Below, in pieces: positions 18,117 to 64,000 of a DNA stretch of 64,000 nucleotides; positions within the stretch are counted from its first letter, which is position 1, and each line of letters opens with the position of its first letter. Source of the stretch: Desulfomonilia bacterium (GTDB lineage Bacteria; Desulfobacterota; Desulfomonilia; UBA1062); NCBI GenBank assembly GCA_963664325.2, contig CAXXDQ010000003.1:1088001-1152000 (forward strand), in the 5' to 3' direction. The notes under the pieces were generated by a model. It did no database searches and was not told where the DNA came from. It saw only the letters and a list, made by a program, of their open reading frames with translations. A program made the translations under genes and the position numbers.

Positions 18117-20402
18117 ATGCTCTTAAAAGATGCCGGAATCAAGCATCCCCTTGTATGTGTTTTTGCAGGAACTGCTTTTGGGATATGTGCTGTTATGCAG
18201 GATATTCAGGCTTCATCCTTCTGCTTTTTAATACTTGCACTTCTCTTCTCGATCAAAAGACTGCCTCACATATTATCAGGAATTCTGATCGGAGCTCTGG
18301 CCACCTCCTGTGCAGTAAAACCAGCCGGCTTCGAAGGTGAGCACTTGATTTCAGGCAGAATTATTTTATCAGGTTTTGAATACGGCACATACAGGATTGA
18401 AATAAAGGATATTCATGTTGACGGTAAACCTGCACGCGGCAAAGCGAGACTCGGAATTTATGAAAATATCGGGGTACCTTCAGGAGCAGACCTCAGCGCT
18501 ACTGCCAGATTGTCATTCCCGGCAGGCCCCGATAATTTCGCTCAGGCCGATATCAGGCATTCCCTGCTTTCAGAGGGTATTACGGTCACAGGTTACATAA
18601 AGGATTTCAATGATATAAAATTTTCAGGCATAAAGAATCCCGGTTTCAGACCATGTAAAATGCTTGATTCGATCGGGGGCAATGAGGCAGGTGTGCTCAA
18701 AGCAATCATTACCGGTGACAGGTCAGGGCTTACGCCACAGGTAAATGACCTTTTTGCCTCTCTGGGGCTGTCCCATTTGATAGCAATTTCAGGGCTGAAT
18801 TTCGGACTCGTGATACTCTTCGGCTACCTGCTGTCTTTTAATATCATAAGACTGATTCCACCTCTTGCGCAAAGACTTGATACTCCCCTTGTATCAAAGG
18901 CATTCGGGCTGGTCTGCGCAATTGCCTACGGGATGTTTGTCGAGCCGTCATTTCCGACCACAAGGGCGCTTGTTATGGCGTGTATTGTGATCGGGGCATT
19001 TATGACAGCACGAAGGATAAATCTTATCGATGCACTGGCTTTTTCAGGGATATTTATCCTTGTCATCTGGCCGCACAGCCTGTTTACGGCGAGCTTTCTG
19101 CTAACCTTTGCCGCTGTTCTGGGAATAGTGGCCGTAACTCAAAAGCTTAAAAATACGGGCATTGCCGTCCAGTTGGTTGCGGTGCCTTTTATTGCAGCTG
19201 TTTTTACCCTGCCCATATCGGTCCAGTATTTTGGCTTCATTTCACCTCTAAGCATAATTTATAATCTGCTGTTCGTTCCGATTTTCAGCTTTATAATCAT
19301 GCCGCTGTCGCTGATTGGAATGCTCATATCATCCTTCTGGGAAACAGGGGCTCTATACCTGTATGGCCTGTGCATGGATGCTATTTCACTTATTCTAACT
19401 ACAGGAGAAAGGTTCGGAAGTCTGGTTGCCGTGCCGAAACCCGGCATATGGTATTTTTACCTGCTGTATCTGGTTCTTTTTATACTGCTGTTTGCAAAGC
19501 GTTCATTGTTAAAGGCAGCAATTCTTGTTCCGGCCGGCATATCACTGTTTATCTTACCGGTTTTCCTTCAGTATCAAAAAATGAATATGCCGCTGACTTT
19601 CGACTTTATCAGTGTCGGAAACGGTGACTGCATTCTTATTACCAAAGGTCATCATTCTATCTTGATCGACGCCGGAGGGTCTTACACTGATTTTGATACG
19701 GGGAGATTCATTGTAGGCCCAAGGCTTTTATCAAGAGGCATAACGAAGCTCGACCTTGTCGTGGCCACACATTCTCATCCCGATCATATTGGCGGCCTTC
19801 CTTTCATACTCGAAAGATTTAAAGTCGGACAGGTCTGGATCAATTGTAAAGACGATCCCGGTTTCACGGATGTCTTCATGGTTACAGATTTGAAACATAT
19901 ACCTGTTGATGCTGTCTTCGCAGGGGTCAAACTTTCATTTCCAAACGATTTTAATATAGACGTTTTCCACCCCCAGCATCTTTTGGAGGCGGCAGACAGG
20001 AAACTGGACTTGAATTTGCATTCAATTGTTTTAAGGATAGGTGACGGCTCTCTGAGCGGAATTTTCATGGCCGACTCTGACTGGTTCGGAGAGGTTAACA
20101 TGGTGCATCAGGCAAGTGGCATGAGAGCGGATATTCTGAAGGCTGCACATCACGGCTCGAAAAGATCCTGCCTCGATATTTTTTTAAATGAGGTCAGGCC
20201 TGAAACGGTGATCATAACATGCGGAAAAAATAACCATTTCGGCCTGCCTTCAGAAGAGGCGTTAGGACGTCTTAAATCAGCAAAAATAAATACTTTATTG
20301 ACAAGCGTTAACGGTGAGATGTTGATTTCAAAGGAATCTGATACTATAATAATTAAGTCATTTAAAAAATATGCCGATAATAAATTTAGAACTATATATT
20401 AA
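18117..20402 (+). CDS. comEC: DNA internalisation competence protein ComEC/Rec2
   Basis: GLSHLIAISGLN competence domain with many TM helices; MBL domain SVGNGD, THSHPDHIGG, HHGS, HFGLPS. Confidence 0.93.
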   Translation: MLLKDAGIKHPLVCVFAGTAFGICAVMQDIQASSFCFLILALLFSIKRLPHILSGILIGALATSCAVKPAGFEGEHLISGRIILSGFEYGTYRIEIKDIHVDGKPARGKARLGIYENIGVPSGADLSATARLSFPAGPDNFAQADIRHSLLSEGITVTGYIKDFNDIKFSGIKNPGFRPCKMLDSIGGNEAGVLKAIITGDRSGLTPQVNDLFASLGLSHLIAISGLNFGLVILFGYLLSFNIIRLIPPLAQRLDTPLVSKAFGLVCAIAYGMFVEPSFPTTRALVMACIVIGAFMTARRINLIDALAFSGIFILVIWPHSLFTASFLLTFAAVLGIVAVTQKLKNTGIAVQLVAVPFIAAVFTLPISVQYFGFISPLSIIYNLLFVPIFSFIIMPLSLIGMLISSFWETGALYLYGLCMDAISLILTTGERFGSLVAVPKPGIWYFYLLYLVLFILLFAKRSLLKAAILVPAGISLFILPVFLQYQKMNMPLTFDFISVGNGDCILITKGHHSILIDAGGSYTDFDTGRFIVGPRLLSRGITKLDLVVATHSHPDHIGGLPFILERFKVGQVWINCKDDPGFTDVFMVTDLKHIPVDAVFAGVKLSFPNDFNIDVFHPQHLLEAADRKLDLNLHSIVLRIGDGSLSGIFMADSDWFGEVNMVHQASGMRADILKAAHHGSKRSCLDIFLNEVRPETVIITCGKNNHFGLPSEEALGRLKSAKINTLLTSVNGEMLISKESDTIIIKSFKKYADNKFRTIY

Positions 20403-20437: not shown

Positions 20438-21121
20438 ATGTTTAAAAAAATGTTAAGGGTTCATAAAAACGAGGATGGCGGAACAAGGGAATACCGGATG
20501 ACAGCCTCCATGTCAGCAGGATTGACCCTTGTCGAGCTTATAGTTGTCATGATCCTGTCGCTGATACTTGTAGGTTCTGCATTCACGGCGTACCTGGCGC
20601 ACAGCAAGACCAGCGGCGAACAGGGCAGGGTGGTGGCGCTTCAACAGGACCTCAGGGCGGTTATGGATATGATAGAAAGGGACGTTAAAAATTCAGGATG
20701 CCATGATCCAAGACTTTCCGGTACTGCTAACATCCAGCCTATAGGGGCGTCCAGCTCAGGACTAAACTCCCTGGCGCTGAACATGGACTTGAATCTGGAC
20801 GGAGCAACCACAGCCCAGGGTGAGCAGGTCAGATATGTGCTTAACGGGACCACATTGAACAGGGTTGACCAGGGCGTGACAGTAGCCCTGCTGAACAATG
20901 TAACTTCATTCGGGATAATTTATAGAGATGCGAACAATGCGGTTATCACGCCGGCAGGTACGCTTACCCAGACCCAGGCCGGCCAGGTTTTATCGGTAGT
21001 GGTGACGCTCAGGGTTCAGAGCGCAACCCCTGACCCTGATACGGGGCTGCCGGTTGTGAGAAGGGTAACAAGACGGATGCAAAGCCGCAATCTGGAGATA
21101 ACACAAAAACATTTCAACTAA
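20438..21121 (+). CDS. pilW: Type IV minor pilin PilW
   Basis: Prepilin site G|LTLVEL; QQDLRAVMDMIERDVKNSG. Confidence 0.8.
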   Translation: MFKKMLRVHKNEDGGTREYRMTASMSAGLTLVELIVVMILSLILVGSAFTAYLAHSKTSGEQGRVVALQQDLRAVMDMIERDVKNSGCHDPRLSGTANIQPIGASSSGLNSLALNMDLNLDGATTAQGEQVRYVLNGTTLNRVDQGVTVALLNNVTSFGIIYRDANNAVITPAGTLTQTQAGQVLSVVVTLRVQSATPDPDTGLPVVRRVTRRMQSRNLEITQKHFN

Positions 21122-21152
21122 TGAGAAAAACAGAACAGCAGGGAGGTCTAGC

Positions 21153-21596
21153 ATGAGGTTGCGTAATAATTTAATTTTTGGAGAGGACGGGGAAAGCGGC
21201 TTTACCCTTATCGAGCTTTTAGTGGCGCTGGTAATATTTTCCATAGGAATTGTAGGTGCGGCCAGGCTCCAGATAGCAGCGGTTTCAGGCAATTCATACA
21301 GTATGCAGCTGGCTCAGGCGATAAGTGTTGCACAGAACGAAGCTGAAAGGCTCCAGGATATAAACTTTACTGTAGCTCAGGTTACTGACGGCGTTATCGA
21401 TGCTCTCGAGACACCTGGTAATGCCACGACTTCAGGGGCTGTTGTTACTATTAATAATACAAATTATACTCCAGTCTGGACTGCCGTGTCTGTAAATAAC
21501 AATCCAAGATTACGTATGGTAACGATGTTCGTCAACTGGAACGAAAAGGGTGTCCCTCGGGTGTATAGATTAAGATTCTACACTGGAATGGACTAG
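21153..21596 (+). CDS. pilV: Type IV minor pilin PilV
   Basis: G|FTLIELLVALVIFSIGIVG; size and context. Confidence 0.82.
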   Translation: MRLRNNLIFGEDGESGFTLIELLVALVIFSIGIVGAARLQIAAVSGNSYSMQLAQAISVAQNEAERLQDINFTVAQVTDGVIDALETPGNATTSGAVVTINNTNYTPVWTAVSVNNNPRLRMVTMFVNWNEKGVPRVYRLRFYTGMD

Positions 21597-21609
21597 CAGG
21601 AATGAAAAA

Positions 21610-22062
21610 ATGATGAAGAAAGGTATAAACCTATTAGAAAATAAGGATGGTATCGTGCTGGTCATGGTGCTGCTGGTTCTCATGGCTACGATAGTGATCG
21701 GGATATTCCTGGCCAGGACAAGCTTTCTCGAGACCAGGATTGCGGGAAATGAAAAGGAATATAAGCAGACTGTTTATGCGCTTGAAAGTTCAACAGACTG
21801 GGCAATACAAAATAACACAGATGCATTTGCAAACGTGGGGATCAATATCGGTCAGAATTATACCTATAGCTCAGCAAGCCTCCCTACTGACGGTATCATA
21901 AACAGTTCAACGATAACGGTCAGATTAACAGGGATACAGAAACCTCCTCTCGGTTCGGGTTCAGATCCGGCCAGGTTCAGGGCAAGATACTATACAATCA
22001 GCTCCATCCAGGGCGGATATACATTGGATATAGGTGTTTACAGGATATTTCCTAAACAATAA
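21610..22062 (+). CDS. pilX: Type IV minor pilin PilX
   Basis: G|IVLVMVLL lacking Glu5; ETRIAGN motif. Confidence 0.82.
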   Translation: MMKKGINLLENKDGIVLVMVLLVLMATIVIGIFLARTSFLETRIAGNEKEYKQTVYALESSTDWAIQNNTDAFANVGINIGQNYTYSSASLPTDGIINSSTITVRLTGIQKPPLGSGSDPARFRARYYTISSIQGGYTLDIGVYRIFPKQ

Positions 22063-22070
22063 AAAAGGCG

Positions 22071-25000
22071 GTGATTCAAATGATAATCAAAAAAACATTG
22101 GCGGTATTGTTTTTGGCGACAGGATTGATATTGCCGCAGGTCAGCCTTGCCGATGATACGGTAATATTCGGAGGGGAGGCTGTTAACCTTGCTCCTAACA
22201 TACTTATTGTTTTCGATAATTCTGGAAGTATGGGGGATTATATTGATGTGCAGGTAACGCAACAGCCATATGATCCGACAATAACGTATTCGAATCAAGG
22301 CTATGATCCTCACTATGTTTACTATGATTATAACAATCACGGATATTGGGTAGACTGGATATATATAGGTTCCGATCATGAGGTCGATTCAAATGAGATA
22401 GTCTGTGAAGCTGTAAGGAATGCGTTGAACACGGGGGGTGTCTACGGGCCTGTACAGTTATGTGAATCAGGCAGAAGTACCTGCCAGTATTATCCCTGCG
22501 GTTCCTGTTCCTCGTATGGTAATGCCTGCAGGAACGGTACTACTGTTAACAGGACTCTTGCTACTGGAAATTACCTCAACTGGCTTAATCAACCCGATAC
22601 CGTATCGAGAAGAAAAATCGATATTGCCAAAGACACCATATGGGAAGTGATTAAAACAACACCCGGCGTCAGATGGGGGATAATGGTTTTTAATTCACCT
22701 GCTTACAATAGTGATAACTCGCAGGGCGGCCATGTGGAAATCCCGGTCAAGGACAGGGGGAGGGGGTCCTATGTGAATTCATGGCCGTACCCGAATGAAC
22801 CGGACTCCACAACATGCTCGAACGGCAATGCCGACTGCAACTACACAAGAAATCAGATGATCACCGAACTTAAAAACGTAATATATGCCCAGTCAGCGAG
22901 TACATGGACGCCGCTTGCGGAAACGCTTGCAGAGGCAGGTCTTTATTATGCGGGTGCAGCTCCGCACTTCGGGACAAACAGCGCTGCAGGGGCAATGAAT
23001 GGGAGTGTTTATAGAACACCCATTGATTACAGGTGCCGGTCAAACAACGTCATTATCATTACTGATGGTCAGCCTACAACTGACCGGGATCCATTTATAA
23101 TAAGCCAAAATTATCTCTTTGGTGAAACCATAGGTGATGCCGACCAGGATGGAAGGAATGAGTTATACGGATATTCCACCTCAAACAGCGACACCTACTA
23201 TGGCAGCGATTATCTTGATGACGTTGCATATTACCTTTATCATAAAGATCTGATAAGAAGCGGGAATGATGCTTCAGGGAATCCCTTCGGTAATTATGAC
23301 CCGAACAATCCCGAGAGGATCCTGCTGCAGAATGTGGTTACATATACTATCGGATTTAACATCCATACCGATCTCCTTCAGCGTACTGCAGATGACGGGC
23401 AGGGTGTCGGAGCGGGTCTGGGGAGTTATTTTACCACTGAAGCTACAGGCGGCCAGGGTGTGAACCTCGCCACTGCAATAAGAAGAATAGTCGGGGAAAT
23501 ACAGGAAAGGAACGCAAACTATGTCACCCCGGTGGTTCCTGTAAGCCGCTCGAACCGGACTTATGCCGATAATGCGGTATATATGGCATTTTTCTCCCCA
23601 AGCGATAAAACCCCGGGTTTCTGGAGGGGCAACCTAAAAAAGTATGGTCTGGATTCGAATGCCATGCTTCTTGACAGGACCGGAATACCTGCAACCGATA
23701 CTACTACAGGACGCATCCTGGATAGCTCACATTCATACTGGTGGTACAACGGAAATGCCGAAGGTGTAGATGTAACTGTAGGCGGGGTCGGGAACAGGCT
23801 GCTTGACGGGAATATAACCCGGAGGTTTTACACTAATAGAGCAGGAGGAATAATTAGTTTTTCGAATACCACCATATCGGCAACAGACCTGGGATTGTTA
23901 CTTGATACAGAAAGGGACGACCTCATAAACTATTTGACTGCTTCCGGAGTATATTCTCCCACGAGTACTGATGCGAGATATAAAAGATCATGGGTGCTCG
24001 GAGATATCCTTCACTCAAGGCCGGCCGTGCTGTATGACTACGACAGGAATGTAAATGCACTCTTTGCAGGGTCTAATGACGGATTTCTGCACTGTTTTGT
24101 GGATACTCCCGGAAGCGCAGGTTGGCCCAACACGGACACGGTTACGGAAAAATGGGCATATACCCCGTATGATTTGTTAACGAACCTCAAAACAATACCA
24201 TCTTTAAAAACGACAATGCTTATAACCGGCGACAATGAGCATGACATCTTCGTTGACGGTTCACCAATCGTGTATAAGGCCGCCAACAACAGCAATTATG
24301 TGGCTTTCGGCCTGAGGCGAGGAGGATCAAAGTATTATTCGCTCAGGCTGACTGCAAATGATGAGAACTACACGCCGATCTGGGCCTGGGATTCTGACAA
24401 CTACATTTCCAGCCTTGGCGAGCCGATGGGCCAGTCGTGGTCGACACCGCTTTTCTGCAAAATCAAAACAACGTCTACGGACACTACAGGGCAGGAAGTT
24501 CTTCTGCTGGCCGGCGGGTATGATACAAATCAGGACCTTGGAACACCGGCAGCACTGGATACTTCAGGAAGGGCTATTTATGCGGTACAAGCGCAAACAG
24601 GACTTCTTACAACTGCTAATTTGCGTTTTACATATGCCAACACAAACTCGATCAGGAATTGCATAGTCGACCTCATTTCTTATGACGGCAATGATGACGG
24701 GTTCGAAGATGTTATCTATGCAGGCACACTGGGTGGTGATCTGTTTGCATTTACCGACAAGGAAAATAACGGAAGCGGCGGATATGGCGATGGGACCTGG
24801 AGTTCTAGCCTGATTTTCCATGCGGCATCCGATGACGGCACTACTACGAAAAACAAAAAGTTTTTCTACTCTCCGGGTATTGCTCAGGAATCATGGGGAG
24901 ATTGGGTGTTCATAGGTTCTGGAAACAGGGAAGACCCTTTGGACGACCTGCCTGAAGGTGTGAGATCAAATGATTATATTTATGCCGTAAAGAATACATG

Positions 25001-25496
25001 GAGCGGAACCACTATTCAGGATAGCGATCTTTATGATGTTACGTCGGACCTGCTGCAGGATGGGACTACTCAACAAAAACAGGATGTCACTGCACAGCTT
25101 GCTTCGAACACATACAAGGGGTGGAAGATATTGCTGGAAAATGCAGGGGAAAAGGTCACATCTTCACCCCTGGTATATAATAAGGTCGTATATTTCACAA
25201 CGTTCGAACCCAGCATAGCGCAAAATACAGATCCGTGCACGTCAGCAGGTTCAGGCACTGCAAGGCTGTATGCACTTGATTACAGCAACGGTAATGCAGC
25301 TTTTGGTGCGCATAAGGCCAACAGGAGCATACTGCTTGGCGGCGGTATGCCTTCTCAGCCTATTGTAATTGTGACGCAGGCCGACAGCAGCGGCCCGGGA
25401 GGGACATTTGTAGGTGTGACCATGGAAGGCGGATGGTTGGCCCCTCAGGCAGGCGGAATAAGAAATATCCACAAATACTACTGGCGGCTGCAATAA
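22071..25496 (+). CDS. pilY1: PilY1/PilC pilus-tip adhesin (vWA domain + beta-propeller)
   Basis: Signal peptide; MIDAS motifs FDNSGSM, TPLAETL, IITDG; WRGNLKKY, LGDILHSRP, GSNDGFLH, GQSWSTP; Ca-binding DGNDDGFED; C-terminal YWR. Confidence 0.93.
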   Translation: MIQMIIKKTLAVLFLATGLILPQVSLADDTVIFGGEAVNLAPNILIVFDNSGSMGDYIDVQVTQQPYDPTITYSNQGYDPHYVYYDYNNHGYWVDWIYIGSDHEVDSNEIVCEAVRNALNTGGVYGPVQLCESGRSTCQYYPCGSCSSYGNACRNGTTVNRTLATGNYLNWLNQPDTVSRRKIDIAKDTIWEVIKTTPGVRWGIMVFNSPAYNSDNSQGGHVEIPVKDRGRGSYVNSWPYPNEPDSTTCSNGNADCNYTRNQMITELKNVIYAQSASTWTPLAETLAEAGLYYAGAAPHFGTNSAAGAMNGSVYRTPIDYRCRSNNVIIITDGQPTTDRDPFIISQNYLFGETIGDADQDGRNELYGYSTSNSDTYYGSDYLDDVAYYLYHKDLIRSGNDASGNPFGNYDPNNPERILLQNVVTYTIGFNIHTDLLQRTADDGQGVGAGLGSYFTTEATGGQGVNLATAIRRIVGEIQERNANYVTPVVPVSRSNRTYADNAVYMAFFSPSDKTPGFWRGNLKKYGLDSNAMLLDRTGIPATDTTTGRILDSSHSYWWYNGNAEGVDVTVGGVGNRLLDGNITRRFYTNRAGGIISFSNTTISATDLGLLLDTERDDLINYLTASGVYSPTSTDARYKRSWVLGDILHSRPAVLYDYDRNVNALFAGSNDGFLHCFVDTPGSAGWPNTDTVTEKWAYTPYDLLTNLKTIPSLKTTMLITGDNEHDIFVDGSPIVYKAANNSNYVAFGLRRGGSKYYSLRLTANDENYTPIWAWDSDNYISSLGEPMGQSWSTPLFCKIKTTSTDTTGQEVLLLAGGYDTNQDLGTPAALDTSGRAIYAVQAQTGLLTTANLRFTYANTNSIRNCIVDLISYDGNDDGFEDVIYAGTLGGDLFAFTDKENNGSGGYGDGTWSSSLIFHAASDDGTTTKNKKFFYSPGIAQESWGDWVFIGSGNREDPLDDLPEGVRSNDYIYAVKNTWSGTTIQDSDLYDVTSDLLQDGTTQQKQDVTAQLASNTYKGWKILLENAGEKVTSSPLVYNKVVYFTTFEPSIAQNTDPCTSAGSGTARLYALDYSNGNAAFGAHKANRSILLGGGMPSQPIVIVTQADSSGPGGTFVGVTMEGGWLAPQAGGIRNIHKYYWRLQ

Positions 25497-25505
25497 GGAG
25501 TAAAT

Positions 25506-25943
25506 ATGAAAAACATTATAAATGGGAAAATAATTTTACTGGAGAAAATAATAATACTTATCTTTATTTTCTCAATACCTCACTCAGTATATGCCGATCC
25601 TTTAAGTTATGCGCTTGAATCATGGGACCCGGTCGGCGTATGCGGCAGTATAATGGAACCAGGCAGGGACTATATTATAGTCAATGAAAAGAAGATTCTT
25701 ATCATAAATGAAAAAAGACAGGGAAAAATTATTAAAACCTCCATCATGGATATGGAAGATAAGCAGCTTGGCGTAGAGGCCTTGAAAAAAGGGGTTTATG
25801 TGGCAATAAATGGTGCCAAGGCTATGGACAAAGACCAGCAGGCCGTTATTGTCGCGAAAGAGATTTATGTGCTGCCCAAACCCATGTCAGATAAGGAGAT
25901 GAGAAAATATCCGAAACTTCAGAAACCGGTTGAATCCTGGTAA
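25506..25943 (+). CDS. Exported small beta-rich (OB-fold-like) protein, PilY2-like by position
   Basis: AAGGAG RBS; signal peptide ending VYA-D; LKKGVYVAING...IVAKEIYVLP pattern. Confidence 0.6.
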   Translation: MKNIINGKIILLEKIIILIFIFSIPHSVYADPLSYALESWDPVGVCGSIMEPGRDYIIVNEKKILIINEKRQGKIIKTSIMDMEDKQLGVEALKKGVYVAINGAKAMDKDQQAVIVAKEIYVLPKPMSDKEMRKYPKLQKPVESW

Positions 25944-43326: not shown

Positions 43327-43709
43327 CCAAAAAGCACCCGGATATCAGGTACGGGCGCGCAAGAGATTTCAATGACTCGTAAGTGAAATTTTAAATAGCC
43401 AAGATATATTTAGCAAATAGAAGGAAATCATTAAAAATCAAAGGTCGGCCATAACAGTAAGAATTATCAAAATTGAAAATCTTGGCAGATGCTAGATGTC
43501 AAGGGTTTTAATAAAAAACTGCAAGCCTAAGAACTGCAAGGAAAAATACCATAACTATATGAAATAACAAAGCAATACAAATTCATTTTTAACATTTGCC
43601 AATCGTGTGCAATCAGGTTTGACGTTTGATTTATCCTGGTACAGTATCGGGTTACATCAAGTTTATCCATCTTGCCTTTTTGTTAAATTGTTGGGGGAGT
43701 AATTTTTTT

Positions 43710-45008
43710 ATGCCTAGCTCTGTGAGCACAAGGGGTGTTCTTTTTGACGGTATTGCTCCGTCCGAACAGGCACTTCTGGATCAGATCGAAATAGAAGAAA
43801 GACAAGGGTCTGTTTTTGTAAAGTGCCCGAACCTTTTTATAGAGCAGCATGTCAAGCGCACTTATGCCGAAAGGATCAGGAAGGCCTTTGGCAGGGAAGT
43901 TGAGTTCGGCATCGCAGGGAGATCACCTGAACCGCATAAATCAGTAAACAGGCCTGTACAGATGATGCTTCCTGATACGGCACCGATGGCAGTGGGGGTC
44001 AATCCCAAGTTCACATTTGATAATTTCGTCGTCGGGAACTGCAACTCGTTTGCTTATCAGGCGGCACAGGCTGTAGTGGATGAAGGGACCAGATATTCCC
44101 CTCTTTATTATTATTCCGATACGGGGCTTGGGAAGAGCCATATTGCACATGCAATAGGAAACGGATTTATAAAAAGGAAAAAAGGTATAAAGGCAAAATA
44201 CACAACCGCCCAGGACTTTTCACAGGAGTACGTGTACGCAGTAAGGAACGACTGCCTCGAAAAATTCAAGAGGACCTACAGATGCGGGCTGGACCTGCTG
44301 TTTATTGATGATGTCCATGTTTTTTCGAGCAAGGAAAAAACGCAGATGGAGGTGTCTTCACTGCTCGATGACATCATGGCTCTGGGCACCCAGGTAGTAT
44401 TCGCAGGATACAGACCGCCAGGGACCATTCAGCAGCTTGACAAGGGGCTGAAGTCAAGAATGTCTTCGGGACTCATGATACATATCAAATCGCCTGACCT
44501 CCTGACAAGAGCGGCAATTGTCAGGGCCAAGGCCGGCGCCGAGAGCATCGTTATGCCTGATGAGGTTGTGGATTTCATTAGCGGTACTGTTGTCAGCAAT
44601 ATCAGGGACCTTGAAAGTGCCGTTATGACGGTAATAGCAATGGCATCGCTCATGAAGCGCGAGATAAATATGGATATCGTAAAAGAAGCGCTTGAAGGTA
44701 CGGTAACAAGAAGGACACGGATAGACATACCCTTTATCCAGGAAGTTGTTTCAAAAAATTTCGGTGTTGACAGGACAGCCCTTGTATCGCCTTCAAGGAA
44801 AAAGGAAATTGCCTATCCCAGACAGATTGCGATTTACCTGTGCAGGCAGTACACCAGGGATTCCCTGCAGATGATAGGCGAGGCGTTCGGCAGAAAGCAT
44901 TCATCCGTCATCCATACGCTGGAAGTCATGGATGCTCAGTACAGGGACAACCTTAAGACGAAGAAGGAAGTGGATTTTATTATGGAGAAGATAGAGTCCG
45001 GGGTCTGA
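43710..45008 (+). CDS. DnaA-family AAA+ protein (divergent second DnaA homologue)
   Basis: KFTFDNFVVG; Walker A SDTGLGKS; Walker B IDD; LKSR, NIRDLE; domain IV PRQIAIYL...IGEAFGRKHSSV. No dnaN adjacent. Confidence 0.9.
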   Translation: MPSSVSTRGVLFDGIAPSEQALLDQIEIEERQGSVFVKCPNLFIEQHVKRTYAERIRKAFGREVEFGIAGRSPEPHKSVNRPVQMMLPDTAPMAVGVNPKFTFDNFVVGNCNSFAYQAAQAVVDEGTRYSPLYYYSDTGLGKSHIAHAIGNGFIKRKKGIKAKYTTAQDFSQEYVYAVRNDCLEKFKRTYRCGLDLLFIDDVHVFSSKEKTQMEVSSLLDDIMALGTQVVFAGYRPPGTIQQLDKGLKSRMSSGLMIHIKSPDLLTRAAIVRAKAGAESIVMPDEVVDFISGTVVSNIRDLESAVMTVIAMASLMKREINMDIVKEALEGTVTRRTRIDIPFIQEVVSKNFGVDRTALVSPSRKKEIAYPRQIAIYLCRQYTRDSLQMIGEAFGRKHSSVIHTLEVMDAQYRDNLKTKKEVDFIMEKIESGV

Positions 45009-53392: not shown

Positions 53393-54859
53393 ATGGCCGG
53401 GATGATGAGTGCACGCCAGTACGAGGAAAGCCTGAGAAGGCTCAGGCTCAATGTTTTCATGTTCGGAAAAAAGGTTACCGGCATAGTCGACGATCCGATA
53501 ATACGTCCGTCGATGAATGCCGTAGCCGCCACCTATGAATATGCCGGCAGGCCCGAGTATGAAAAAATACTAACCGCCACCTCACACCTGAGCGGAAAGA
53601 AGATCAGCCGTTTCACCCACATCCACCAGAGCACTGAGGATCTGATCAAAAAGAGCAAAATGGGGCGTCTGCTGGGATCGCTCACCGCCTGCTGCTTCCA
53701 GAGGTGCGTGGGGATGGACGCCATGAACGCTTTATCCATCACCACTCATGCAATCGATGAAAAATGCGGAACTGAATACAACAGGCGCTTCCTCAGATTC
53801 CTTGAATATGTCCAGGAAAACGACCTTGTCTGCGACGGGGCCATGACCGACCCAAAGGGCGACCGTTCACTGCCGCCCGGCAAACAGCCTGACCCTGATG
53901 CCTTCCTGCATATCGTGGAAGAACTGCCGGACGGTATTGTCGTAAGCGGTGCAAAGGCTCACCAGACCGGTGCTGTGAATTCGCATGAAATAATAGTCAT
54001 GCCCACGATCACCATGAGGGAGGAAGACAGGAACTATGCGGTTTCATTTGCTCTGCCTAGCGATGCGGAGGGGATCACCTACATCATAGGCCGCCAGTCG
54101 TGTGATACCAGGAAACTCGAGAGCGCGGGCTTTGACCGCGGCAACATGTTCTATGGCGGTCATGAGGCACTGGTGGTCTTCGACAGGGTGTTTGTGCCCT
54201 GGGAACGTGTTTTCATGAAGGGGGAGTGCGAATTTACGACGCAGCTGGTTGAGAACTTTGCCGCCTACCACCGCCAGAGCTACGCGTGCAAGGTGGGTGT
54301 AGGAGATGTCCTGATCGGCGCCGCCCAGACGGCGGCCGAATATAACGGCGCCGAAAAGGCATCCCATGTCAGAGACAAGATAATCGAGATGAACCACCTG
54401 AACGAAACCCTTTACTGCGGCTGCATCGCCTGCGCGGCGGAAGGCGGGAGGCAGCCCGGCGGGACATACCTTGTCGACCTCCTGCTTGCAAATGTGCACA
54501 AACAGAACATTACCCGGCTGCCCTATGAGATTGCAAGGCTTGCCCAGGATATTGCCGGCGGGCTGGTTGTAACATGCCCTTCCGCACAGGACCTTGAGTC
54601 ACCGGAAACAGGGAAATGGGTCGAAAAATACCTGAAGACGAAAGAGAACATCCCGACTGAACACCGGATGAGGATATTAAGGCTCATCGAAAACATCACA
54701 ATGGGTTCTGCCGCTGTTGGCTACCTCACGGAATCTATGCACGGGGCGGGGTCTCCCCAGGCGCAGAGGATTATGATTTCCAGGCTTGTTGATATGAAAA
54801 AGAAGCAGAAGATTGCAAAGGAACTTTGCGGGATAGAAAAGGGCGGTCAGGTCTTATAG
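53393..54859 (+). CDS. abfD: 4-hydroxybutyryl-CoA dehydratase / vinylacetyl-CoA isomerase
   Basis: CFQRC and HRQSYAC cluster-ligand motifs; GAMTDPKGDRS, ESMHGAGSPQAQR. Confidence 0.85.
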   Translation: MAGMMSARQYEESLRRLRLNVFMFGKKVTGIVDDPIIRPSMNAVAATYEYAGRPEYEKILTATSHLSGKKISRFTHIHQSTEDLIKKSKMGRLLGSLTACCFQRCVGMDAMNALSITTHAIDEKCGTEYNRRFLRFLEYVQENDLVCDGAMTDPKGDRSLPPGKQPDPDAFLHIVEELPDGIVVSGAKAHQTGAVNSHEIIVMPTITMREEDRNYAVSFALPSDAEGITYIIGRQSCDTRKLESAGFDRGNMFYGGHEALVVFDRVFVPWERVFMKGECEFTTQLVENFAAYHRQSYACKVGVGDVLIGAAQTAAEYNGAEKASHVRDKIIEMNHLNETLYCGCIACAAEGGRQPGGTYLVDLLLANVHKQNITRLPYEIARLAQDIAGGLVVTCPSAQDLESPETGKWVEKYLKTKENIPTEHRMRILRLIENITMGSAAVGYLTESMHGAGSPQAQRIMISRLVDMKKKQKIAKELCGIEKGGQVL

Positions 54860-56244: not shown

Positions 56245-57213
56245 TTATTTTTTTCCCTCAGGAACAGCGGTTTCAACAATCGGCTTGCCCTGGAAGAAAT
56301 CCATCAGCAGTTGAGCAGTAATGCCGGGCAGCTCTTCCTGCGGCATATGTCCGCATTTGGAGATCTCGACAAATAAAGAGTTCCTTATGTTTTTTTTCAG
56401 ACTGTAACCGCTTTCAATGGGGACCCATCTGTCGGTATCGCCCCAGATAATGAGGGTCGGGGTGCTTATTTCCGGAACGCGTTTGATGTATTTGTCATAT
56501 TCCTTGAAATCGATTCCCTTCACAATGACCATAAGCGCATCCATTGCACCCTCCGAGCGTATCCTGTCATAATAAGCGTTTATCTGTTCATCCGTTATCT
56601 TGTTCTTGTCGTACATGACCTCGCCGATATTCCACCTGATCATCCATTTGCCGTATATGAGCTTCATGATCTCGCCGGCCCCCGGTACCCGGCCGAGGCC
56701 GATGACGGTCGGGAGTTTCTGGGGATATCCGGCCGCATCGACAAGTACGAGCTTCGATATTTTATCGGGGTGCATGAAGGCCATCAGCGTCGCCACCCCG
56801 CCGCCAAAGGAATTGCCCACAAAGTAGACGTCTTTAAGCCCTTTTGCCTCAAGGAATGCATTCACTTCATTTGTGAGCGTCTCGATGTCGTATTTGCTTT
56901 TCTCGGGCTTGTCGCTCCAGCCGAAGCCCTTCATGTCCATGAGCCAGACATGATAGCCGTTTTTCTGTAAGATCGGCGCAACCTTTTCCCAAGTGTACAT
57001 GGAGGAGGGGAGGCCATGCAGGAGGAACACATCCGGGCCGTCGGCCGGGTATTCCTTGTAATGAATATTTGCGCCGTCAATGATTATGAATTTGTCGGCC
57101 TCGGTCCTGCCCGGGATTTCACCTTTGGGTATGGTTTTTACAAAAAGTCCGCAGCCTGATGTGAAGATTAAAGCCAATGAGCACAAAATAAACATTCTTA
57201 TAATATTCTTCAT
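56245..57213 (-). CDS. Alpha/beta hydrolase lipoprotein
   Basis: Lipobox TSGC; LLHG; nucleophile GNSFGG; WGDTD; GHMPQEE. Start moved to the ATG after an AGGAG RBS. Confidence 0.9.
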   Translation of the reverse strand: MKNIIRMFILCSLALIFTSGCGLFVKTIPKGEIPGRTEADKFIIIDGANIHYKEYPADGPDVFLLHGLPSSMYTWEKVAPILQKNGYHVWLMDMKGFGWSDKPEKSKYDIETLTNEVNAFLEAKGLKDVYFVGNSFGGGVATLMAFMHPDKISKLVLVDAAGYPQKLPTVIGLGRVPGAGEIMKLIYGKWMIRWNIGEVMYDKNKITDEQINAYYDRIRSEGAMDALMVIVKGIDFKEYDKYIKRVPEISTPTLIIWGDTDRWVPIESGYSLKKNIRNSLFVEISKCGHMPQEELPGITAQLLMDFFQGKPIVETAVPEGKK

Positions 57214-57339
57214 GTCTTCTCCTATGGGATTATAACAACAGGGTGGGGTTAAAACGTCCAATCGCGTTTTTTTCAAGTGGAAAGGATACATTTTTTTATG
57301 GACTGCTTTGAGCTTTTTCACACCACTCACCACTCATAA

Positions 57340-57999
57340 CTATCCATTGTCCTTGGCCTGCTTCATTATCTCGACGCCTGAACTGGTGCCTATGCGGGTG
57401 GCGCCGGCCGTGATCATTGCCAGGGCGGTCTTGTAATCCCTTATGCCCCCTGAAGCCTTTACTCCGGCCCTGTCACCCACGATGCTTCTCATGAGGGCGA
57501 CATCCTTAAGAGTTGCGCCGCCTGCGGAAAAACCTGTAGATGTCTTGACGAAGCCGGCGCCTGCCTTCATTGAAATCTGGCAGGCCTTGATCTTTTCCTC
57601 GTCGGTCAGAAGGCAGCACTCAATTATGACCTTTACAATGGCCTTGTCCTTTGCGGCGGCAGTTACCGCCCATATTTCCTCTTCCACAACATCGTAGAAT
57701 TTGTCCTTCAGCGCCCCGATATTTATTACCATGTCTATCTCCTGGGCCCCGGAGAAGATCAGCGTATGGGTTTCAAAGGATTTTATCTCGCAGTTTGTTG
57801 CTCCGAGCGGAAATCCTATGACGGCGCATGTCTTTACCCTGCTCTTTTTAAGCTCTCTGCTTACGAGGGGCACATAATAGGGGTTTACGCAAACGGATTT
57901 AAATGCATATTCTTTTGCCTCTCTGCACAGGTTGATTATCTGTGATTCGGTCGCTTCAGGCTTTAATATGGTGTGGTCAATGTACTCGTTTATTTTCAT
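57340..57999 (-). CDS. deoC: Deoxyribose-phosphate aldolase
   Basis: [33 protein letters not shown]. Confidence 0.96.
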
Positions 58000-58952
58000 T
58001 TTTGTTTCACCTTTTCTGATTTTGTTTTCAAAAGGAGGTTCTCGATCTCGTGACGGAAAGGCATGGAAGGCGCAGTTCCCAGCTTGGTGACGGACAGGGC
58101 GCCCGTCGCATTTGCAAATTGCACGGCCGAGGACAAATCCATTCCGCAGGCCAGCGCCGTTGCGAGTCCGCCGTTGAAGGCGTCACCTGCGCCTGTCGTA
58201 TCCAGGACATCGACTGCAAACGGGTCAATGATATATTCCGCTGATTCCGCCAGTACGAACGCCCCTTTGCCGCCCATCGTTATTATAACGGTTCCGGTGC
58301 CTTTTCTTTTGATAAGATGGGAAGCGATTGCCGCGTCTTCAAATGTTGAGACCTTAATGCCCGAGATGACCGATGCCTCGGTTTCATTGGGCGTGAGGAT
58401 ATCGACCATTGCCAGGAGCTCATCCGGGAGTGGAGACAGCGGGGCCGGCGCAGGATTAAGTATGACCTTTATGCCTTTTGAATGTGCAATCTCCACAGCT
58501 TTGATAATCGCATCCATGTTTGTCTCGAGCTGCACGAGAAGCACGCTGGAACCTTCTATATGAGCACGTGCCGATTCGATCTCGGCAGATGAGATATGAT
58601 CGCATGCCCCCGGCGTGACCAGTATCTGGTTTTCACTCGTGTTTTCATCCACCATGATAAGGGCGGTTCCCGTGGGGTATTCACCGTCCTGCATGATGAA
58701 TGAGGTCTCCATACCCTCTTTGCAGAAGCTGTCCAGGGCGATCTTTGCAAAGGCATCAGTCCCTATTTTGGTGATCATTGTAACTTCTGCGCCTGACCGG
58801 CAGGCCGCCACTCCCTGATTGGAGCCCTTGCCGCCTGGGCCGATTACGAATTGCGAACCCTTGACAGTTTCCCCGTGCACGGGCAGGTGGTGTGCCCGCG
58901 CCATCAGATCGACAATGAAACTACCCATGACGGTTACCCGCGGTTTTGACAT
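57996..58952 (-). CDS. rbsK: Ribokinase
   Basis: [29 protein letters not shown]. Confidence 0.92.
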
Positions 58953-58994
58953 CTTTTGCGCTCCCATATTAAATATTGAAGGTGCAAGGATAAG

Positions 58995-59026
58995 AAAAAG
59001 CGGCGCAAAAGACAAGCGCCGCTTTT
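58995..59026 (-). terminator. Rho-independent terminator (possibly bidirectional) after the GH1 gene
   Basis: AAAAGCGGCGC-N9-GCGCCGCTTTT. Confidence 0.75.
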
Positions 59027-59115: not shown

Positions 59116-60399
59116 TTATTCCCTGGGTTTATAATCGTCCGGGAGGCCGCGATCGGCAATGATGTCCCTGTATGTCTGGACCGCATCGGTCGGGATGCGC
59201 TCAAGTGCCGGATCGCTCAGGACATTCACGGTATACAGGCCGAAGCGCTCATCATAATCACCCCATTCATAGTTGTCTGTAAGAGACCAGTAGAAATAGC
59301 CTATCACCTTCACTCCCTCGTTCATGGCCTTCTGCATCCAGTAGACATGGGATTTAAGGTGCTCGGACCTCGTCCAGCCGTCCGGCCGCGGCTTGCCGTT
59401 CTCGGTGGCCATTCCGTTTTCAGCGATCATGATGGGCAGACCGGGATATTCCCGGCCGTATTTTTTCAGGGCCTTGTACAGGCCCTCGGGGTATAAGGTG
59501 CAGAGCCACTTCTTTCCGTCGGCCGGCAGCAGGCCATAGAGTGAAGTGAAGTTATAGTAATAGTCTATGGCGAGGAAATCGATCTTGTCGTCTATATCGT
59601 CGAGCACATATTCTCTCTGAATGATATCACTGTTGATAATGAAACCCAGGAGCCAGTGCCTGAACTGCATGTAATACATGTTTGCTGATACAAGGCTTTC
59701 CGGGTCAAGCTTATGGATGAGGTCATAGGCTTTTCTATGGGCAGTGACGATGTTTTCCTTGACCTTGCCGGCGGCGAACGGGTCGATCTTGCCTGGAGCT
59801 GTAAAGCCGACTGCCCAAGACATGATCGGCCATAAATTGGGCTCGTTGAAGGTAATCCAGTACTTAACCCTGTCACCGTAGCGGGCCACCACCAGGTCGA
59901 CGTAGCGAAGGTAGTAGTCTACCACCAGCGGATTCTCCCATCCGCATTCATCCTCCAGCCACTGGGGATAGTTGAAGTGGATAAGGGTCACCACCGGCTG
60001 CATTCCCCCGGCAGTGATGGCGTCGATGAGATCATCGTAGTAGGCCAGGGCGTCCTGATCGATCACACCACGCGCCGGTTCGATCCTGGACCATTCGATG
60101 CTGATCCGGAAGGCATTATTCCCCATGTTTGCAGCAAGATTAATATCTTCTCTATATCGGTGGAGAAAATCAACAGCCAGGCCGACCCTGTCCTTGGTAT
60201 GTCCCTGACTGTCCCATGCAGCCCACACGCTTGTTGTGTCTCCTCCCTCGGACTGAAAGCCCGCGGTTGACACACCCCAAAGAAATTCGGCAGGAAACTT
60301 CTTCAAACAGCCACAGAAAAACAGACACACCAGAAGAAAGGCGAAAGCGGACAACTTACGGTAAGATAAACTCCTCATACCACAATCCCCACTTTTCAT
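59116..60399 (-). CDS. Glycoside hydrolase family 1 with a lipoprotein-type signal
   Basis: FLWGVSTAGFQSEG, RISIEWSRI; catalytic TFNEP and IAENG; WSLTDNYEW; FCG-C lipobox-like site. Alternative start at 60378. Confidence 0.93.
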   Translation of the reverse strand: MKSGDCGMRSLSYRKLSAFAFLLVCLFFCGCLKKFPAEFLWGVSTAGFQSEGGDTTSVWAAWDSQGHTKDRVGLAVDFLHRYREDINLAANMGNNAFRISIEWSRIEPARGVIDQDALAYYDDLIDAITAGGMQPVVTLIHFNYPQWLEDECGWENPLVVDYYLRYVDLVVARYGDRVKYWITFNEPNLWPIMSWAVGFTAPGKIDPFAAGKVKENIVTAHRKAYDLIHKLDPESLVSANMYYMQFRHWLLGFIINSDIIQREYVLDDIDDKIDFLAIDYYYNFTSLYGLLPADGKKWLCTLYPEGLYKALKKYGREYPGLPIMIAENGMATENGKPRPDGWTRSEHLKSHVYWMQKAMNEGVKVIGYFYWSLTDNYEWGDYDERFGLYTVNVLSDPALERIPTDAVQTYRDIIADRGLPDDYKPRE

Positions 60400-60628: not shown

Positions 60629-60658
60629 TTGACAGGTTCCTTCAGATGAGGATACAAT
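60629..60658 (+). promoter_or_regulatory. Putative sigma70 promoter
   Basis: TTGACA-18 bp-TACAAT. Confidence 0.55.
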
Positions 60659-60729
60659 TGAAAATAATTACATGAGTATTATTGAAACACTTAACCGGAC
60701 AAGGACGAACGTTTTGCGAGGTATCTCAG

Positions 60730-61044
60730 ATGGTAACAGATTTAACAACGAGAGAGCTTATCAGCTATGTTGCCCAGTATGGGTTCAAACATACCGAAGA
60801 GCAGCTGGATAATTTCCTTAATGATCTTTTAATCCAGACCGAGAAGGAACCGTACAGAACAATACTGCATGACCTTGTTTCAATGTATCATGAAGGCAGA
60901 GCAAACCCTCATTGGGTGCATGTTTACAGGTGCGGTGAAGACCAGTTCAAACGTATTCATGAAGTACTCAACAAAGGAGGGGAATTAAAATATATCTGTT
61001 ACTCTCCTTTAAAAGAAAACATAGGGGCAAAGATAAAATTTTAA
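60730..61044 (+). CDS. Hypothetical protein (104 aa)
   Basis: GAGGT RBS, upstream promoter and globular-looking composition; no motif recognised. Confidence 0.6.
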   Translation: MVTDLTTRELISYVAQYGFKHTEEQLDNFLNDLLIQTEKEPYRTILHDLVSMYHEGRANPHWVHVYRCGEDQFKRIHEVLNKGGELKYICYSPLKENIGAKIKF

Positions 61045-61284: not shown

Positions 61285-62028
61285 TTATGATCCGAATATC
61301 GATTTGATACACAATTCACCATAGTTGGATATCTGCTCCCATGCGCTTTTCGTATCGAGTGTATTATACGTTGCCGGATTGATCACGCCATAAGGAAACA
61401 TGGTGATGATATTGCCGCGTGCGTAATCAATCATCCAGCAGCTGTCCACATACCGGAAAACCCTGCGGGTTCCCTTCTTCAGATAGGCTGTGTCTCCGGC
61501 TAGATACACGGATCTTTCAAACTGACCGGGATCAAAGGTGTCCATTTCTCCAGCTACCATGCAGTCCCACACATCCGCTTGAGTATAATAGCCGGAAAAA
61601 CCGGTGGCCCCGATGGGAGTACCGAAGAAAGCCACATATTCGTTTGGCGAAGCATATACGACAGCGATATTGCAGATCACATTGCCGGCGGCGTTAAAAG
61701 TCCATTTAAGCGTGTCAGTTATTACACCGGGATGCCTCTGCGCCAGTTCCGCGCGCATCATCTCCCACCTGTCTTTAAGGGGCAGGTTTGCGCCCATGTT
61801 GGCTATGCTCTGGATTTCTTCCGGTGTGAAAACATATTGCGTGCTTTTTCCGCTCGAGCCTATTGTCGTCGTCAGCTTTTTATAAAGTTGATTGACCGAA
61901 TCCATGGTGGGATTTCCATCTGCGGGCAGAGTCGACTGTATTTCAGCTTGTGTACCCTTGGGATCAATGCATCCGGCCGTCATGAGAAAGGGGATGAACA
62001 ATATGATTGACACTATATATCTTTTCAT
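61285..62028 (-). CDS. ERG2 / sigma-1 receptor family protein with a lipoprotein signal
   Basis: GAGGAGG RBS; MTAG-C lipobox; EL..RHPG, WTFNAAG, ASPNEY..FFGT.IG..GFSG.Y, WMIDYARG. Confidence 0.85.
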   Translation of the reverse strand: MKRYIVSIILFIPFLMTAGCIDPKGTQAEIQSTLPADGNPTMDSVNQLYKKLTTTIGSSGKSTQYVFTPEEIQSIANMGANLPLKDRWEMMRAELAQRHPGVITDTLKWTFNAAGNVICNIAVVYASPNEYVAFFGTPIGATGFSGYYTQADVWDCMVAGEMDTFDPGQFERSVYLAGDTAYLKKGTRRVFRYVDSCWMIDYARGNIITMFPYGVINPATYNTLDTKSAWEQISNYGELCIKSIFGS

Positions 62029-62415
62029 AAAAACCTCCTCAGGAATTTAATGGCTAAAATCAGCTGAACCGTATCCCGATGCAAAATACCATGAATTTGA
62101 ATTACTGTTAAAACATAAATATGAAGAATCTGAAATTTACATATACAATATCCGGCGAAATTATTGGGGTCCCGGAAATCATGGATGTGCAGGATAAACG
62201 CAATTCAATTGATCTCAAATCATTGATGATCATAACGCAAGATTTTGTAGAAATTGCATCCTTTAATGAAACATGTGGATTGAACAAATATAAAAATGTA
62301 TGTTGGGTTTGATTAAAATGGCAGATTAACCTGTAGAAAACTTTTATCGGGTGGCTTTAAGGCAGGGGCTGAAAAAATACTTAAGATAACACGAAAATTA
62401 TTTATATACGGGGAA

Positions 62416-64000
62416 ATGAAAATGTCCATTAAGAAAAATGTAATTCCGCATGATCAAATGATTGGAATGCCATTTATGAATCCTGCAGCGGATCACGAGC
62501 AAAGAATCGAGGATCTGTTGTCACGGCTCACGGTCGAAGAGAAGTGCCTGCTTTCAGCCGGCAAGAAAATGTGGACGACTAAACCCGTTCCCCGCCTGGG
62601 AATACCTCCATTCGGGATGACCGACGGTCCAAACGGTATGGCATTCCATTCCTCAGGCTTTAAAAGAAATACCGCCTATCCCACCAGTATCTGTATGGGG
62701 GCGGCATGGAACCCGGAGCTGGCCTATGATTTCGGCTTGACCTATGCCCGGGAGGTAAGGGCAGCAGGTAACAGGCATATGATTCTGGGACCGGGCATCA
62801 ATATTCATCGCTCACCGTTAAATGGACGCACTTTCGAATATCTTGGGGAAGACCCTTTCCTGGTCTCGAAATTGGTCGTGCCGATAGTAAAGGGGATCCA
62901 GAGTCAGCGGATAGTGGCATGTGTCAAACATTATGCATGTAATAACCAGGAAACCAGGCGGATGAACATCGATGCGATAGTTGATGAGCGTGCCTTGCAG
63001 GAGATTTATCTCCCTGGCTTTAAAGCGGCAGTCCAGGAAGCGGATGCACTTTCTTTGATGGCTTGCTACAACAAGCTCAATGGATTCTACGGATGTGAGA
63101 ATCCTGATTTGCTTATAAAGCGTCTTAGAAAGGAATGGGGATTCAGGGGCTTTGTCGTATCAGACTGGTTTGCCACAAAAGGCACCAGCGGTACTGATGG
63201 TTGTGTCAACGGAGGGCTAACCCTTGAAATGCCCACAATGGGCAGGTATAACAAGCTGGTTCCATCCAGAATCATTTCAGCCGTTCAGGCAGGCAGGATA
63301 AATGAAAAGACTCTTGACGAAAATATTCGCCGGTTGCTCCGGGCCATGTTTTTCGCAGGGCTTTTCGATGATCCCGGGACCTTGCCCAAAGGAAGCCGCA
63401 ACACCCGAGAACATTATGAAGTGGCAAAAAAAATAGCTCAGGAAGGCATGGTCCTCCTTAAGAATGAAAAGTCGTTTCTACCCCTTGATGTCAGTAAAGT
63501 TAAAAAAATCTGCGTACTGGGTCGGAATGCGAACAGAAAGCAGGCACTCCCGATAATAGGAGGCAGTTCTGCAGTCTGGCCGAAATATGAAATCACCCCA
63601 TTGCGCGGTTTGAAAAACAAGTTAATAAATAAAGCCCTATTCGTAAAGAAACCCTCTGATGCCGATGTTGTTGTAGTCGTTGTCGGGCTAAACCATAATC
63701 CCGGGAAAGATGCCGAAGGAAAAGATCGTCCGGGACTGGAACTGCCTGAAAAAGACATCCGGTTAATTATGGCCACGGCAAGAGCAAATGCCAACACAGT
63801 GGTGGTGCTGGTGAACGGAAGCCCTGTTGCGGTAGACCCCTGGATTGATTTAGTTCCGGCCGTACTTGAGTCTTGGTATGGAGGACAAGAAGCCGGTACA
63901 GTTATAGCGGATATACTATTCGGTGATACAAATCCTTCCGGTAAGTTGCCATTGACATTCCCCAGGAAGCTTGCTGATTCCCCGGCGCATGCAAGTCCGA
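62416..64000 (+). CDS. Glycoside hydrolase family 3 (beta-glucosidase-like); runs off the window, absent from the ORF track
   Basis: LSRLTVEEK, RLGIP, TDGPNG, GRTFEYLGEDP, KHY; nucleophile GFVVSDW; VLLKN; NPSGKLPLTFP. Confidence 0.93.
   Translation, partial: MKMSIKKNVIPHDQMIGMPFMNPAADHEQRIEDLLSRLTVEEKCLLSAGKKMWTTKPVPRLGIPPFGMTDGPNGMAFHSSGFKRNTAYPTSICMGAAWNPELAYDFGLTYAREVRAAGNRHMILGPGINIHRSPLNGRTFEYLGEDPFLVSKLVVPIVKGIQSQRIVACVKHYACNNQETRRMNIDAIVDERALQEIYLPGFKAAVQEADALSLMACYNKLNGFYGCENPDLLIKRLRKEWGFRGFVVSDWFATKGTSGTDGCVNGGLTLEMPTMGRYNKLVPSRIISAVQAGRINEKTLDENIRRLLRAMFFAGLFDDPGTLPKGSRNTREHYEVAKKIAQEGMVLLKNEKSFLPLDVSKVKKICVLGRNANRKQALPIIGGSSAVWPKYEITPLRGLKNKLINKALFVKKPSDADVVVVVVGLNHNPGKDAEGKDRPGLELPEKDIRLIMATARANANTVVVLVNGSPVAVDPWIDLVPAVLESWYGGQEAGTVIADILFGDTNPSGKLPLTFPRKLADSPAHASP

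Follow-up and report, generated by a model that had tools for sequence, protein, structure and literature searches.

An ERG2/sigma-1 receptor family gene and its predicted fold

The 64,000-nucleotide stretch of contig CAXXDQ010000003.1 analyzed here, referred to throughout as the window, carries a gene for a predicted lipoprotein precursor of the ERG2/sigma-1 receptor family (61285..62028, minus strand). The frame encodes 247 amino acids (aa) between an ATG start and a TAA stop, was re-translated, and lies exactly where the original prediction had placed it; that prediction, made from the letters of the DNA, had proposed a bacterial lipoprotein homolog of the sigma-1 receptor and the ERG2 sterol isomerase. 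The homology is real and far beyond chance. PF04622 (ERG2_Sigma1R) is the sole Pfam family matched at E≤1 (E=8.5e-38), and in this check, which had been suggested at the outset, its score of 130.3 bits stands far above the gathering cut-off of 21. The match spans residues 61-243 (61300..61848, minus strand) and profile positions 18-205 of 210, and AlphaFold2 and Foldseek also speak for the domain; no NCBIfam model matches the protein. Comparison with the PDB using phmmer returned six distinct sequences at E≤1, four of which are sigma-1 receptors from human and Xenopus laevis (E 6.9e-19 to 2.2e-18), the other two being at chance level (E ~0.8). A profile made from an alignment of 141 ERG2_Sigma1R family sequences (alignment A1, also the AlphaFold2 input) gave four PDB matches, all four of them sigma-1 receptors (E 1e-57 to 1e-54), and no structure of a bacterial family member or of ERG2 was found in the PDB by this profile search. 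The five receptor-like motifs on which the family assignment had been based by eye are all present, at residues 94, 109, 126, 143 and 198.

The AlphaFold2 model was obtained with a mean predicted local distance difference test (pLDDT) of 94.1 and a predicted template-modeling score (pTM) of 0.89. Helices are predicted at residues 2-17 (within the signal peptide), 23-32, 42-56, 69-76 and 84-98, followed by a core formed of a cupin-like β-barrel (110-205) and two C-terminal helices (207-222 and 226-245). Among the Foldseek matches listed against the PDB, the top 42 ranks are all sigma-1 receptor chains (E ~2e-17), with template-modeling (TM) scores of 0.71 when normalized by the query and 0.76-0.83 by the target, the top matches reaching 0.81-0.83; the best superposition is with 8wue_A, at a root-mean-square deviation of 1.4 Å over 185 columns. 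The comparison of a predicted structure with the receptor, also asked for in the original prediction, thus agrees with the sequence searches. The next matches after the receptors are small cupins such as KdgF (E ~2e-6). Several of the matching receptor entries hold progesterone or dehydroepiandrosterone (DHEA) sulfate, so the pocket of the sigma-1 receptor fold accepts steroids.

The protein has many bacterial relatives. An exhaustive HMMER search of 1.84 billion representatives (50%-identity clusters) gave 488 at E≤1e-3, 209 at E≤1e-10 and 22 at E≤1e-30, and a profile search of 90%-identity clusters gave 1377 at E≤1e-10 among 4853 candidates; ten close relatives share 66-89% identity with the query, and PF04622 is carried by all 83 of the first-round relatives. 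Two of these 83 are named as hypothetical proteins, of a 'Myxococcales bacterium' in one case and of a 'bacterium' in the other. Four kinds of N-terminus are found among the relatives: a lipoprotein signal, a signal peptide with an extension, a short hydrophobic anchor, or none of these. Relatives with the anchor directly before the domain are typically 217 aa long, and those without an extension 185-193 aa. In a FastTree phylogeny of 205 rows, for which only the domain columns were used, the query falls in an 11-row exported clade (support 98) inside a 23-row exported group (96); this group is nested in an 82-row clade (99), named the Asp clade for reasons given below, which also holds a 50-row clade of anchored or extension-less proteins (96). 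A quick IQ-TREE run of 93 rows recovers the 11-row set (98) and a 22-row set (96).

More distant relatives carry the domain in fusions, namely with an F420H2-dependent quinone reductase (P0100), with FAD_binding_4 with or without an ALO oxidase domain (P0186, P0213, P0220), and with a lipoxygenase (P0214). These domain combinations hint at lipid enzyme or redox roles for the family beyond sterol synthesis. In a single-protein scan of a genome collection, 22 stretches fitted the patterns and one was called a relative, a Heimdallarchaeota metagenome-assembled genome (MAG) locus (L001, 107..232); it was rejected as a chance match of about 40 residues in a 92-aa frame lying antisense to a 1407-aa open reading frame (ORF).

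The exported N-terminus and the acid pair

The N-terminus fits a lipoprotein signal by pattern, and lipidation is predicted. Residues 1-19 (61972..62028, minus strand) form a signal peptide, recognized from sequence and hydropathy, that begins MKR, with Lys2-Arg3 as its n-region, continues with a 13-residue hydrophobic run (residues 4-16), and ends in the lipobox residues Thr-Ala-Gly, which directly precede Cys20. By the lipobox pattern, Cys20 (61969..61971, minus strand) would be the lipid-modified first residue of the mature protein. Seven of the 11 own-clade rows have this Cys, and the remaining four are truncated or have a different start; a lipoprotein signal pattern was found in 19 of the 21 lipoprotein-type relatives checked. 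Residues 21-61 (61846..61968, minus strand) make up an N-terminal extension with two helices (23-32 and 42-56) in the AlphaFold2 model; the block has a pLDDT of 89-98, and its pattern recurs in the 30 exported relatives aligned. As modeled, the extension is a conserved module, not a spacer. The eukaryotic-type N-terminal transmembrane helix is absent from the protein, and the Pfam model does not need one. The suggestion that this helix had been replaced by a lipobox and a linker therefore stands for the lipobox, for which the signal and the Cys20 pattern speak; the linker has to be read as a conserved two-helix module instead.

The original prediction had also put forward the protein as a soluble model for a drug-target family. 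This idea is not borne out by hydropathy, as the mean Kyte-Doolittle value of the two C-terminal helices is 0.57 in exported forms (n=27) against 0.39 in transmembrane-anchored forms (n=33) and 0.44 in extension-less forms (n=16); the helices of the exported forms are no less hydrophobic, and the view that these forms lost their membrane-facing hydrophobic helices was rejected. In the transmembrane-anchored relatives (33 sequences), the mean net charge is +2.5 before the hydrophobic segment and +0.3 after it. By the positive-inside rule, this bias suggests that in the anchored relatives the N-terminus faces the cytoplasm and the domain lies on the other side of the membrane. The sigma-1 receptor, for its part, is described as a type II protein with a lumenal C-terminus (PMC6053353, PMC8561001). 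On this reading, the lipoprotein anchor offers another means of keeping this barrel at the exoplasmic side of a membrane.

The ligand-binding residues of the receptor can be followed into the bacterial protein. When phmmer aligns the protein with the Xenopus receptor, the Glu of WMVEYGRG is matched by Asp201 and the Asp of AEISD by Asp155. Residue numbering follows the native receptor length of 223 aa (PMC8071319), and with an offset of four residues attributed to a tag, Asp201 (61426..61428, minus strand) would occupy the position of human Glu172 and Asp155 (61564..61566, minus strand) that of Asp126. The equivalents of receptor Glu102 and Tyr103 are Glu130-Tyr131 (61636..61641, minus strand), which are invariant in A1. 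In the receptor, Glu172 binds the protonated amine of the ligand and is hydrogen-bonded to Asp126 and Tyr103, and both acids are reported to be essential for binding (PMC6017133). Across 209 aligned relatives, the Glu130 column is Glu in 206 and the Tyr131 column Tyr in 205, and the Asp155 column is Asp in 176 and is kept in at least 90% of the A1 rows. In the bacterial model, a buried polar triad of Tyr131, Asp155 and Asp201 is shown within an otherwise hydrophobic barrel.

The observation that Asp stands at the Glu172 position with the Asp126 equivalent kept is therefore correct, as both the receptor alignment and the column counts of the 209 relatives agree with it; its standing as a special feature is lost. 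The Asp201 column contains 104 Asp and 96 Glu among the 209 relatives, and Asp, from which the query's clade (support 99) takes its name here, is found in 82 of 82 rows of that clade, regardless of the type of N-terminus. Glu is dominant only among the more distant relatives outside it (96 Glu and 22 Asp of 127). A Glu-to-Asp exchange that marks a changed function was accordingly ruled out as a distinguishing feature, being a trait of the clade as a whole.

The pocket as a whole was compared over the 82 rows of the Asp clade, of which 11 belong to the query's own clade, 20 are other exported proteins and 51 are transmembrane-anchored or lack an N-terminal element. Positions V117, A133, F135, F144, S145, Y148, V153, D155, Y193, D201, Y202, R204, M210 and G214 show little or no variation. 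Position 211 departs from this pattern, with Phe in 31 of 31 exported rows, and Leu in 30, Met in 19 and Val in one of the 51 anchored or extension-less rows. As the pocket positions are near-invariant across these rows, one ligand class seems to be handled in different anchoring contexts. Three further positions set the query's own clade apart. Cys156 (61561..61563, minus strand) and Cys197 (61438..61440, minus strand) are Cys in all 11 of its rows, these columns being Leu in 60 of 71 and Thr in 60 of 71 rows, respectively, in the rest of the Asp clade, and a periplasmic disulfide between the two is possible. Tyr147 (61588..61590, minus strand) is Tyr in 9 of the 11 rows, and elsewhere this position is a near-universal Arg.

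Host and gene neighborhood

The window carries an obg gene, and two relatives share 90-91% identity with its product; among the named relatives, the best (67-71%) are MAGs labeled Deltaproteobacteria, Desulfomonilia and Syntrophaceae, Desulfomonilia being a class of Thermodesulfobacteriota. Because of the resemblance of this marker to Desulfomonilia/Syntrophaceae-type MAGs, the host is probably an anaerobe of the Desulfomonilia/Thermodesulfobacteriota lineage. Among the 48 window ORFs scanned with Pfam, none belongs to a sterol or triterpenoid family (squalene synthesis, cyclase, epoxidase, P450 or sterol reductase), in agreement with the earlier remark that the window holds no sterol-synthesis gene. 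The families found in these ORFs include sensor kinases, sigma-54 activators, pilin-like genes, DnaA, ComEC, and sugar and amino-acid enzymes. One of them is an HpaB-family protein (53393..54859, plus strand) with a Pfam E of 6.7e-100, which scores 167 bits against the 480 bits of the NCBIfam HpaB equivalog cut-off. The HpaB family also includes 4-hydroxybutyryl-CoA dehydratase. By its score, the window protein may be other than an O2-dependent hydroxylase, which bears on whether the host is anaerobic.

The ERG2-like gene stands alone on its strand. A Shine-Dalgarno-like GAGGAGG (62034..62040, minus strand) can be read 5 nucleotides before its ATG, and a consensus scan gave a σ70-like promoter candidate, TTAACA-17-TATTTT, TG-extended and with 9 of 12 consensus positions (62083..62111, minus strand); 10 such sites occur in the 2.2-kb region, shuffles of which give 5.8 ± 2.5, and the candidate is thus weak. 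Upstream, the gene is divergent from a glycoside hydrolase family 3 (GH3) gene (62416..63999, plus strand). Downstream, it converges with a 120-aa ORF (60682..61044, plus strand), for which no lead was obtained from Pfam, NCBIfam or the Atlas; this ORF is preceded by a near-consensus σ70-like site, TTGACA-18-TACAAT, with 11 of 12 positions (60629..60658). No Rfam match was found at E≤0.1 over positions 59000-64000, and no match to the ERG2-like protein was found in a plasmid collection searched with tblastn.

Beyond the 120-aa ORF lies a β-glucosidase-like gene of glycoside hydrolase family 1 (GH1; 59116..60399, minus strand), which has a Pfam E of 3.5e-79 and remains below the NCBIfam equivalog cut-offs. 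Its product begins with a hydrophobic segment ending Phe-Cys-Gly-Cys, which is lipoprotein-like; an exported GH1 enzyme would be unusual. The GH1 gene heads a string (56245..59015, minus strand) of a ribokinase (TIGR02152, above cut-off), deoC (above cut-off) and an α/β hydrolase. Elsewhere in the window, a pilin-like cluster (20438..25943, plus strand) encodes N_methyl and PilX_N proteins and contains a 1141-aa ORF (22071..25496) without a Pfam or NCBIfam family, and a ComEC-type competence gene (18117..20402) adjoins the cluster. A DnaA-type gene with Bac_DnaA and Bac_DnaA_C domains (43626..45008, plus strand) may not mark a replication origin, because the GC skew is positive on both sides of it.

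Possible function and comparison with known systems

The explanation favored here, to which we give about an even chance, is that the protein is located in the envelope and either converts or binds a hydrophobic lipid by stabilizing a positive charge; sterol specificity is not implied. Following export and lipidation, the barrel would lie on the periplasmic face of a membrane, which is topologically equivalent to the lumenal side of the endoplasmic reticulum (ER) where the sigma-1 receptor domain is found. A hydrophobic polycyclic or isoprenoid-like lipid would be taken out of the membrane, and a positive charge on it would be held between the carboxylates of Asp155 and Asp201. This charge could be the carbocation intermediate of a double-bond shift, as in ERG2-like catalysis, or the ammonium group of a bound amphiphile, as in receptor-like binding. 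Catalysis appears the more likely of the two, because the family is enzymatic outside the animals and the distant relatives include fusions to redox enzymes. The predicted extracytoplasmic location, the likely anaerobic host and the lack of nearby sterol genes favor a lipid of the envelope, or one that is scavenged, as the substrate over an intermediate of de novo sterol synthesis. A 'new role' for the protein, as put forward in the original prediction, would be plausible.

Several points weigh against this explanation. The lipobox has Thr at its -3 position, which is less usual than Leu, Val or Ile, and was called by pattern only; the +2 residue is Ile here and Asp in close relatives, so that sorting to the inner or the outer membrane is unreadable. 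The anaerobic character of the host is built on one marker, Obg, and as 64 kb of a contig of about 1.2 Mb were covered, it is possible that a cyclase or squalene epoxidase is encoded elsewhere in the genome. The pocket common to all N-terminal classes could just as well be that of a sterol isomerase in each of them. In terms of annotation, 7 of the 83 first-round relatives are labeled 'C-8 sterol isomerase' by the Joint Genome Institute, these being automatic names, and the nearest Atlas clusters are mostly from Myxococcota, a sterol-producing phylum (scores 0.81-0.83, taken as leads only).

A non-catalytic, sigma-1-receptor-like binder is a tentative and somewhat unlikely alternative to the favored explanation. 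Such a protein would carry, sense or chaperone a sterol-like or cationic amphiphilic lipid in the periplasm, and this lipid may be an aglycone set free by the neighboring glycosidases. Diderm envelopes commonly contain lipoproteins that carry hydrophobic ligands. It would agree with the closest solved structures being those of the receptor, which binds steroids and amines in the same pocket, and with the position of the gene between the GH1 gene, with its lipoprotein-like N-terminus, and the GH3 gene. However, no operon is shared with either, the gene being divergent from GH3 and separated from GH1 by an opposite-strand ORF, the other characterized member of the family is an enzyme, and the distant relatives include the redox fusions described above.

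The proposal that the protein is a routine C-8 (Δ8-Δ7) sterol isomerase of a pathway encoded elsewhere, with the lipoprotein anchor merely a membrane tether, is considered unlikely. The acid pair and pocket are intact, as such an enzyme would have them, and to the seven C-8 sterol isomerase labels can be added one 'ERG2 family protein [Deltaproteobacteria bacterium]'; however, the names in the source records are automatic transfers from Pfam or KEGG. The mostly myxococcal Atlas neighbors are in keeping with the proposal, as is the reported occurrence of ERG2 homologs in the sterol gene sets of Plesiocystis pacifica, Calothrix and Methylotuvimicrobium. Against these stand the predicted location outside the cytoplasm, the count of 0 sterol genes in 48 window ORFs, and the nearest named relatives of the host, which are Desulfomonilia/Syntrophaceae-type MAGs. 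Sterol synthesis requires oxygen according to PMC8237579, which treats the homologous deltaproteobacterial pathway with regard to the aerobic myxobacteria.

A broader evolutionary scenario, also improbable at present, is that the fold originated in a bacterial envelope protein that worked at the outer side of the cytoplasmic membrane on lipids other than sterols, such as hopanoid-like or other isoprenoid or olefinic lipids formed independently of O2. The exported members of the Asp clade in anaerobic Thermodesulfobacteriota would then still perform the ancestral task, the sterol C-8 isomerase and the animal receptor having been recruited later, and the receptor would owe its ER-lumenal orientation to a periplasmic ancestor. 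The idea that the gene is eukaryotic or myxobacterial DNA, acquired horizontally and now decaying or without function, is hardly credible, even though the few bacterial ERG2 homologs then known were once taken as transfers from eukaryotes (PMC2817430). Its frame is intact and has a strong ribosome-binding site, its guanine-plus-cytosine content is 0.48 (window, 0.47), every invariant residue of the family is retained, the pocket is conserved clade-wide, and it has the ten close relatives and the 1377 clusters noted above.

The gene belongs to a sizeable bacterial radiation in which the same pocket stands behind four kinds of N-terminus, one of them exported, here in a probable anaerobe. If the ligand is not a sterol, this would point to an older, oxygen-independent function of the fold and would bear on how the sterol pathway was assembled. 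A small bacterial member free of a transmembrane helix could also serve as a structural and biochemical model; its C-terminal helices remain hydrophobic, however.

Among known systems, the sigma-1 receptor (human 5HK1; Xenopus laevis 7W2B, 8W4B and 8WUE) is of the same Pfam family and likewise has a barrel closed by two C-terminal helices. The equivalents of Glu102, Tyr103, Phe107, Ser117 and Asp126 are identical in the two proteins, and the bacterial domain is predicted on the exoplasmic side of a membrane as in the type II receptor. Unlike the receptor, the protein comes from a bacterial host and shares only 24-26% identity with it; it has Asp at the position of Glu172, Val at Trp89, Phe at His116 and Tyr at Arg119, and a cleavable lipoprotein signal with a two-helix module of 41 residues stands where the receptor has its transmembrane helix. 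Small bacterial cupins (KdgF and others) are alike in the barrel alone, with TM-scores to the target of 0.64-0.72; they share 10-19% identity with the query, are about 110 residues long, bind metal, and are without the C-terminal helices and the acid pair, so that the cupin likeness is a remote fold relation only.

Fungal ERG2, the C-8 sterol isomerase, is also of the same Pfam family. The usual view of its catalysis is a carbocation route stabilized by carboxylates, and such a route is what is proposed here for the bacterial protein. In contrast to this enzyme of an O2-dependent ER sterol pathway, the protein described here is predicted to be exported, its host is a probable anaerobe, and 64 kb of surrounding DNA hold no sterol genes. 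ERG2 homologs are reported in Plesiocystis pacifica, together with a sterol gene set, and in Mycobacteria (PMC2817430), in myxobacteria (PMC8237579, a work on sterol evolution that calls the history of ERG2 'complex'), within a sterol gene cluster of Calothrix sp. NIES-4105 (PMC10202945), and in a sterol gene set of Methylotuvimicrobium (PMC13277303). Receptor literature still names yeast ERG2 as the sole known homolog and regards the receptor as an evolutionary isolate (PMC10094450). With bacterial ERG2 homologs already in print and automatically annotated, the homology itself, as noticed in the original prediction, is not new. These published homologs are of the same family as the query, but the papers treat them as part of sterol synthesis. 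The literature searched, which mostly excluded subscription journals, gave no description of a bacterial form that is exported or a lipoprotein, or of the family in Thermodesulfobacteriota. What is new in comparison is modest but real: an exported, lipobox-anchored subfamily with its own helical module and clade-specific changes, in a host that is probably without sterol synthesis.

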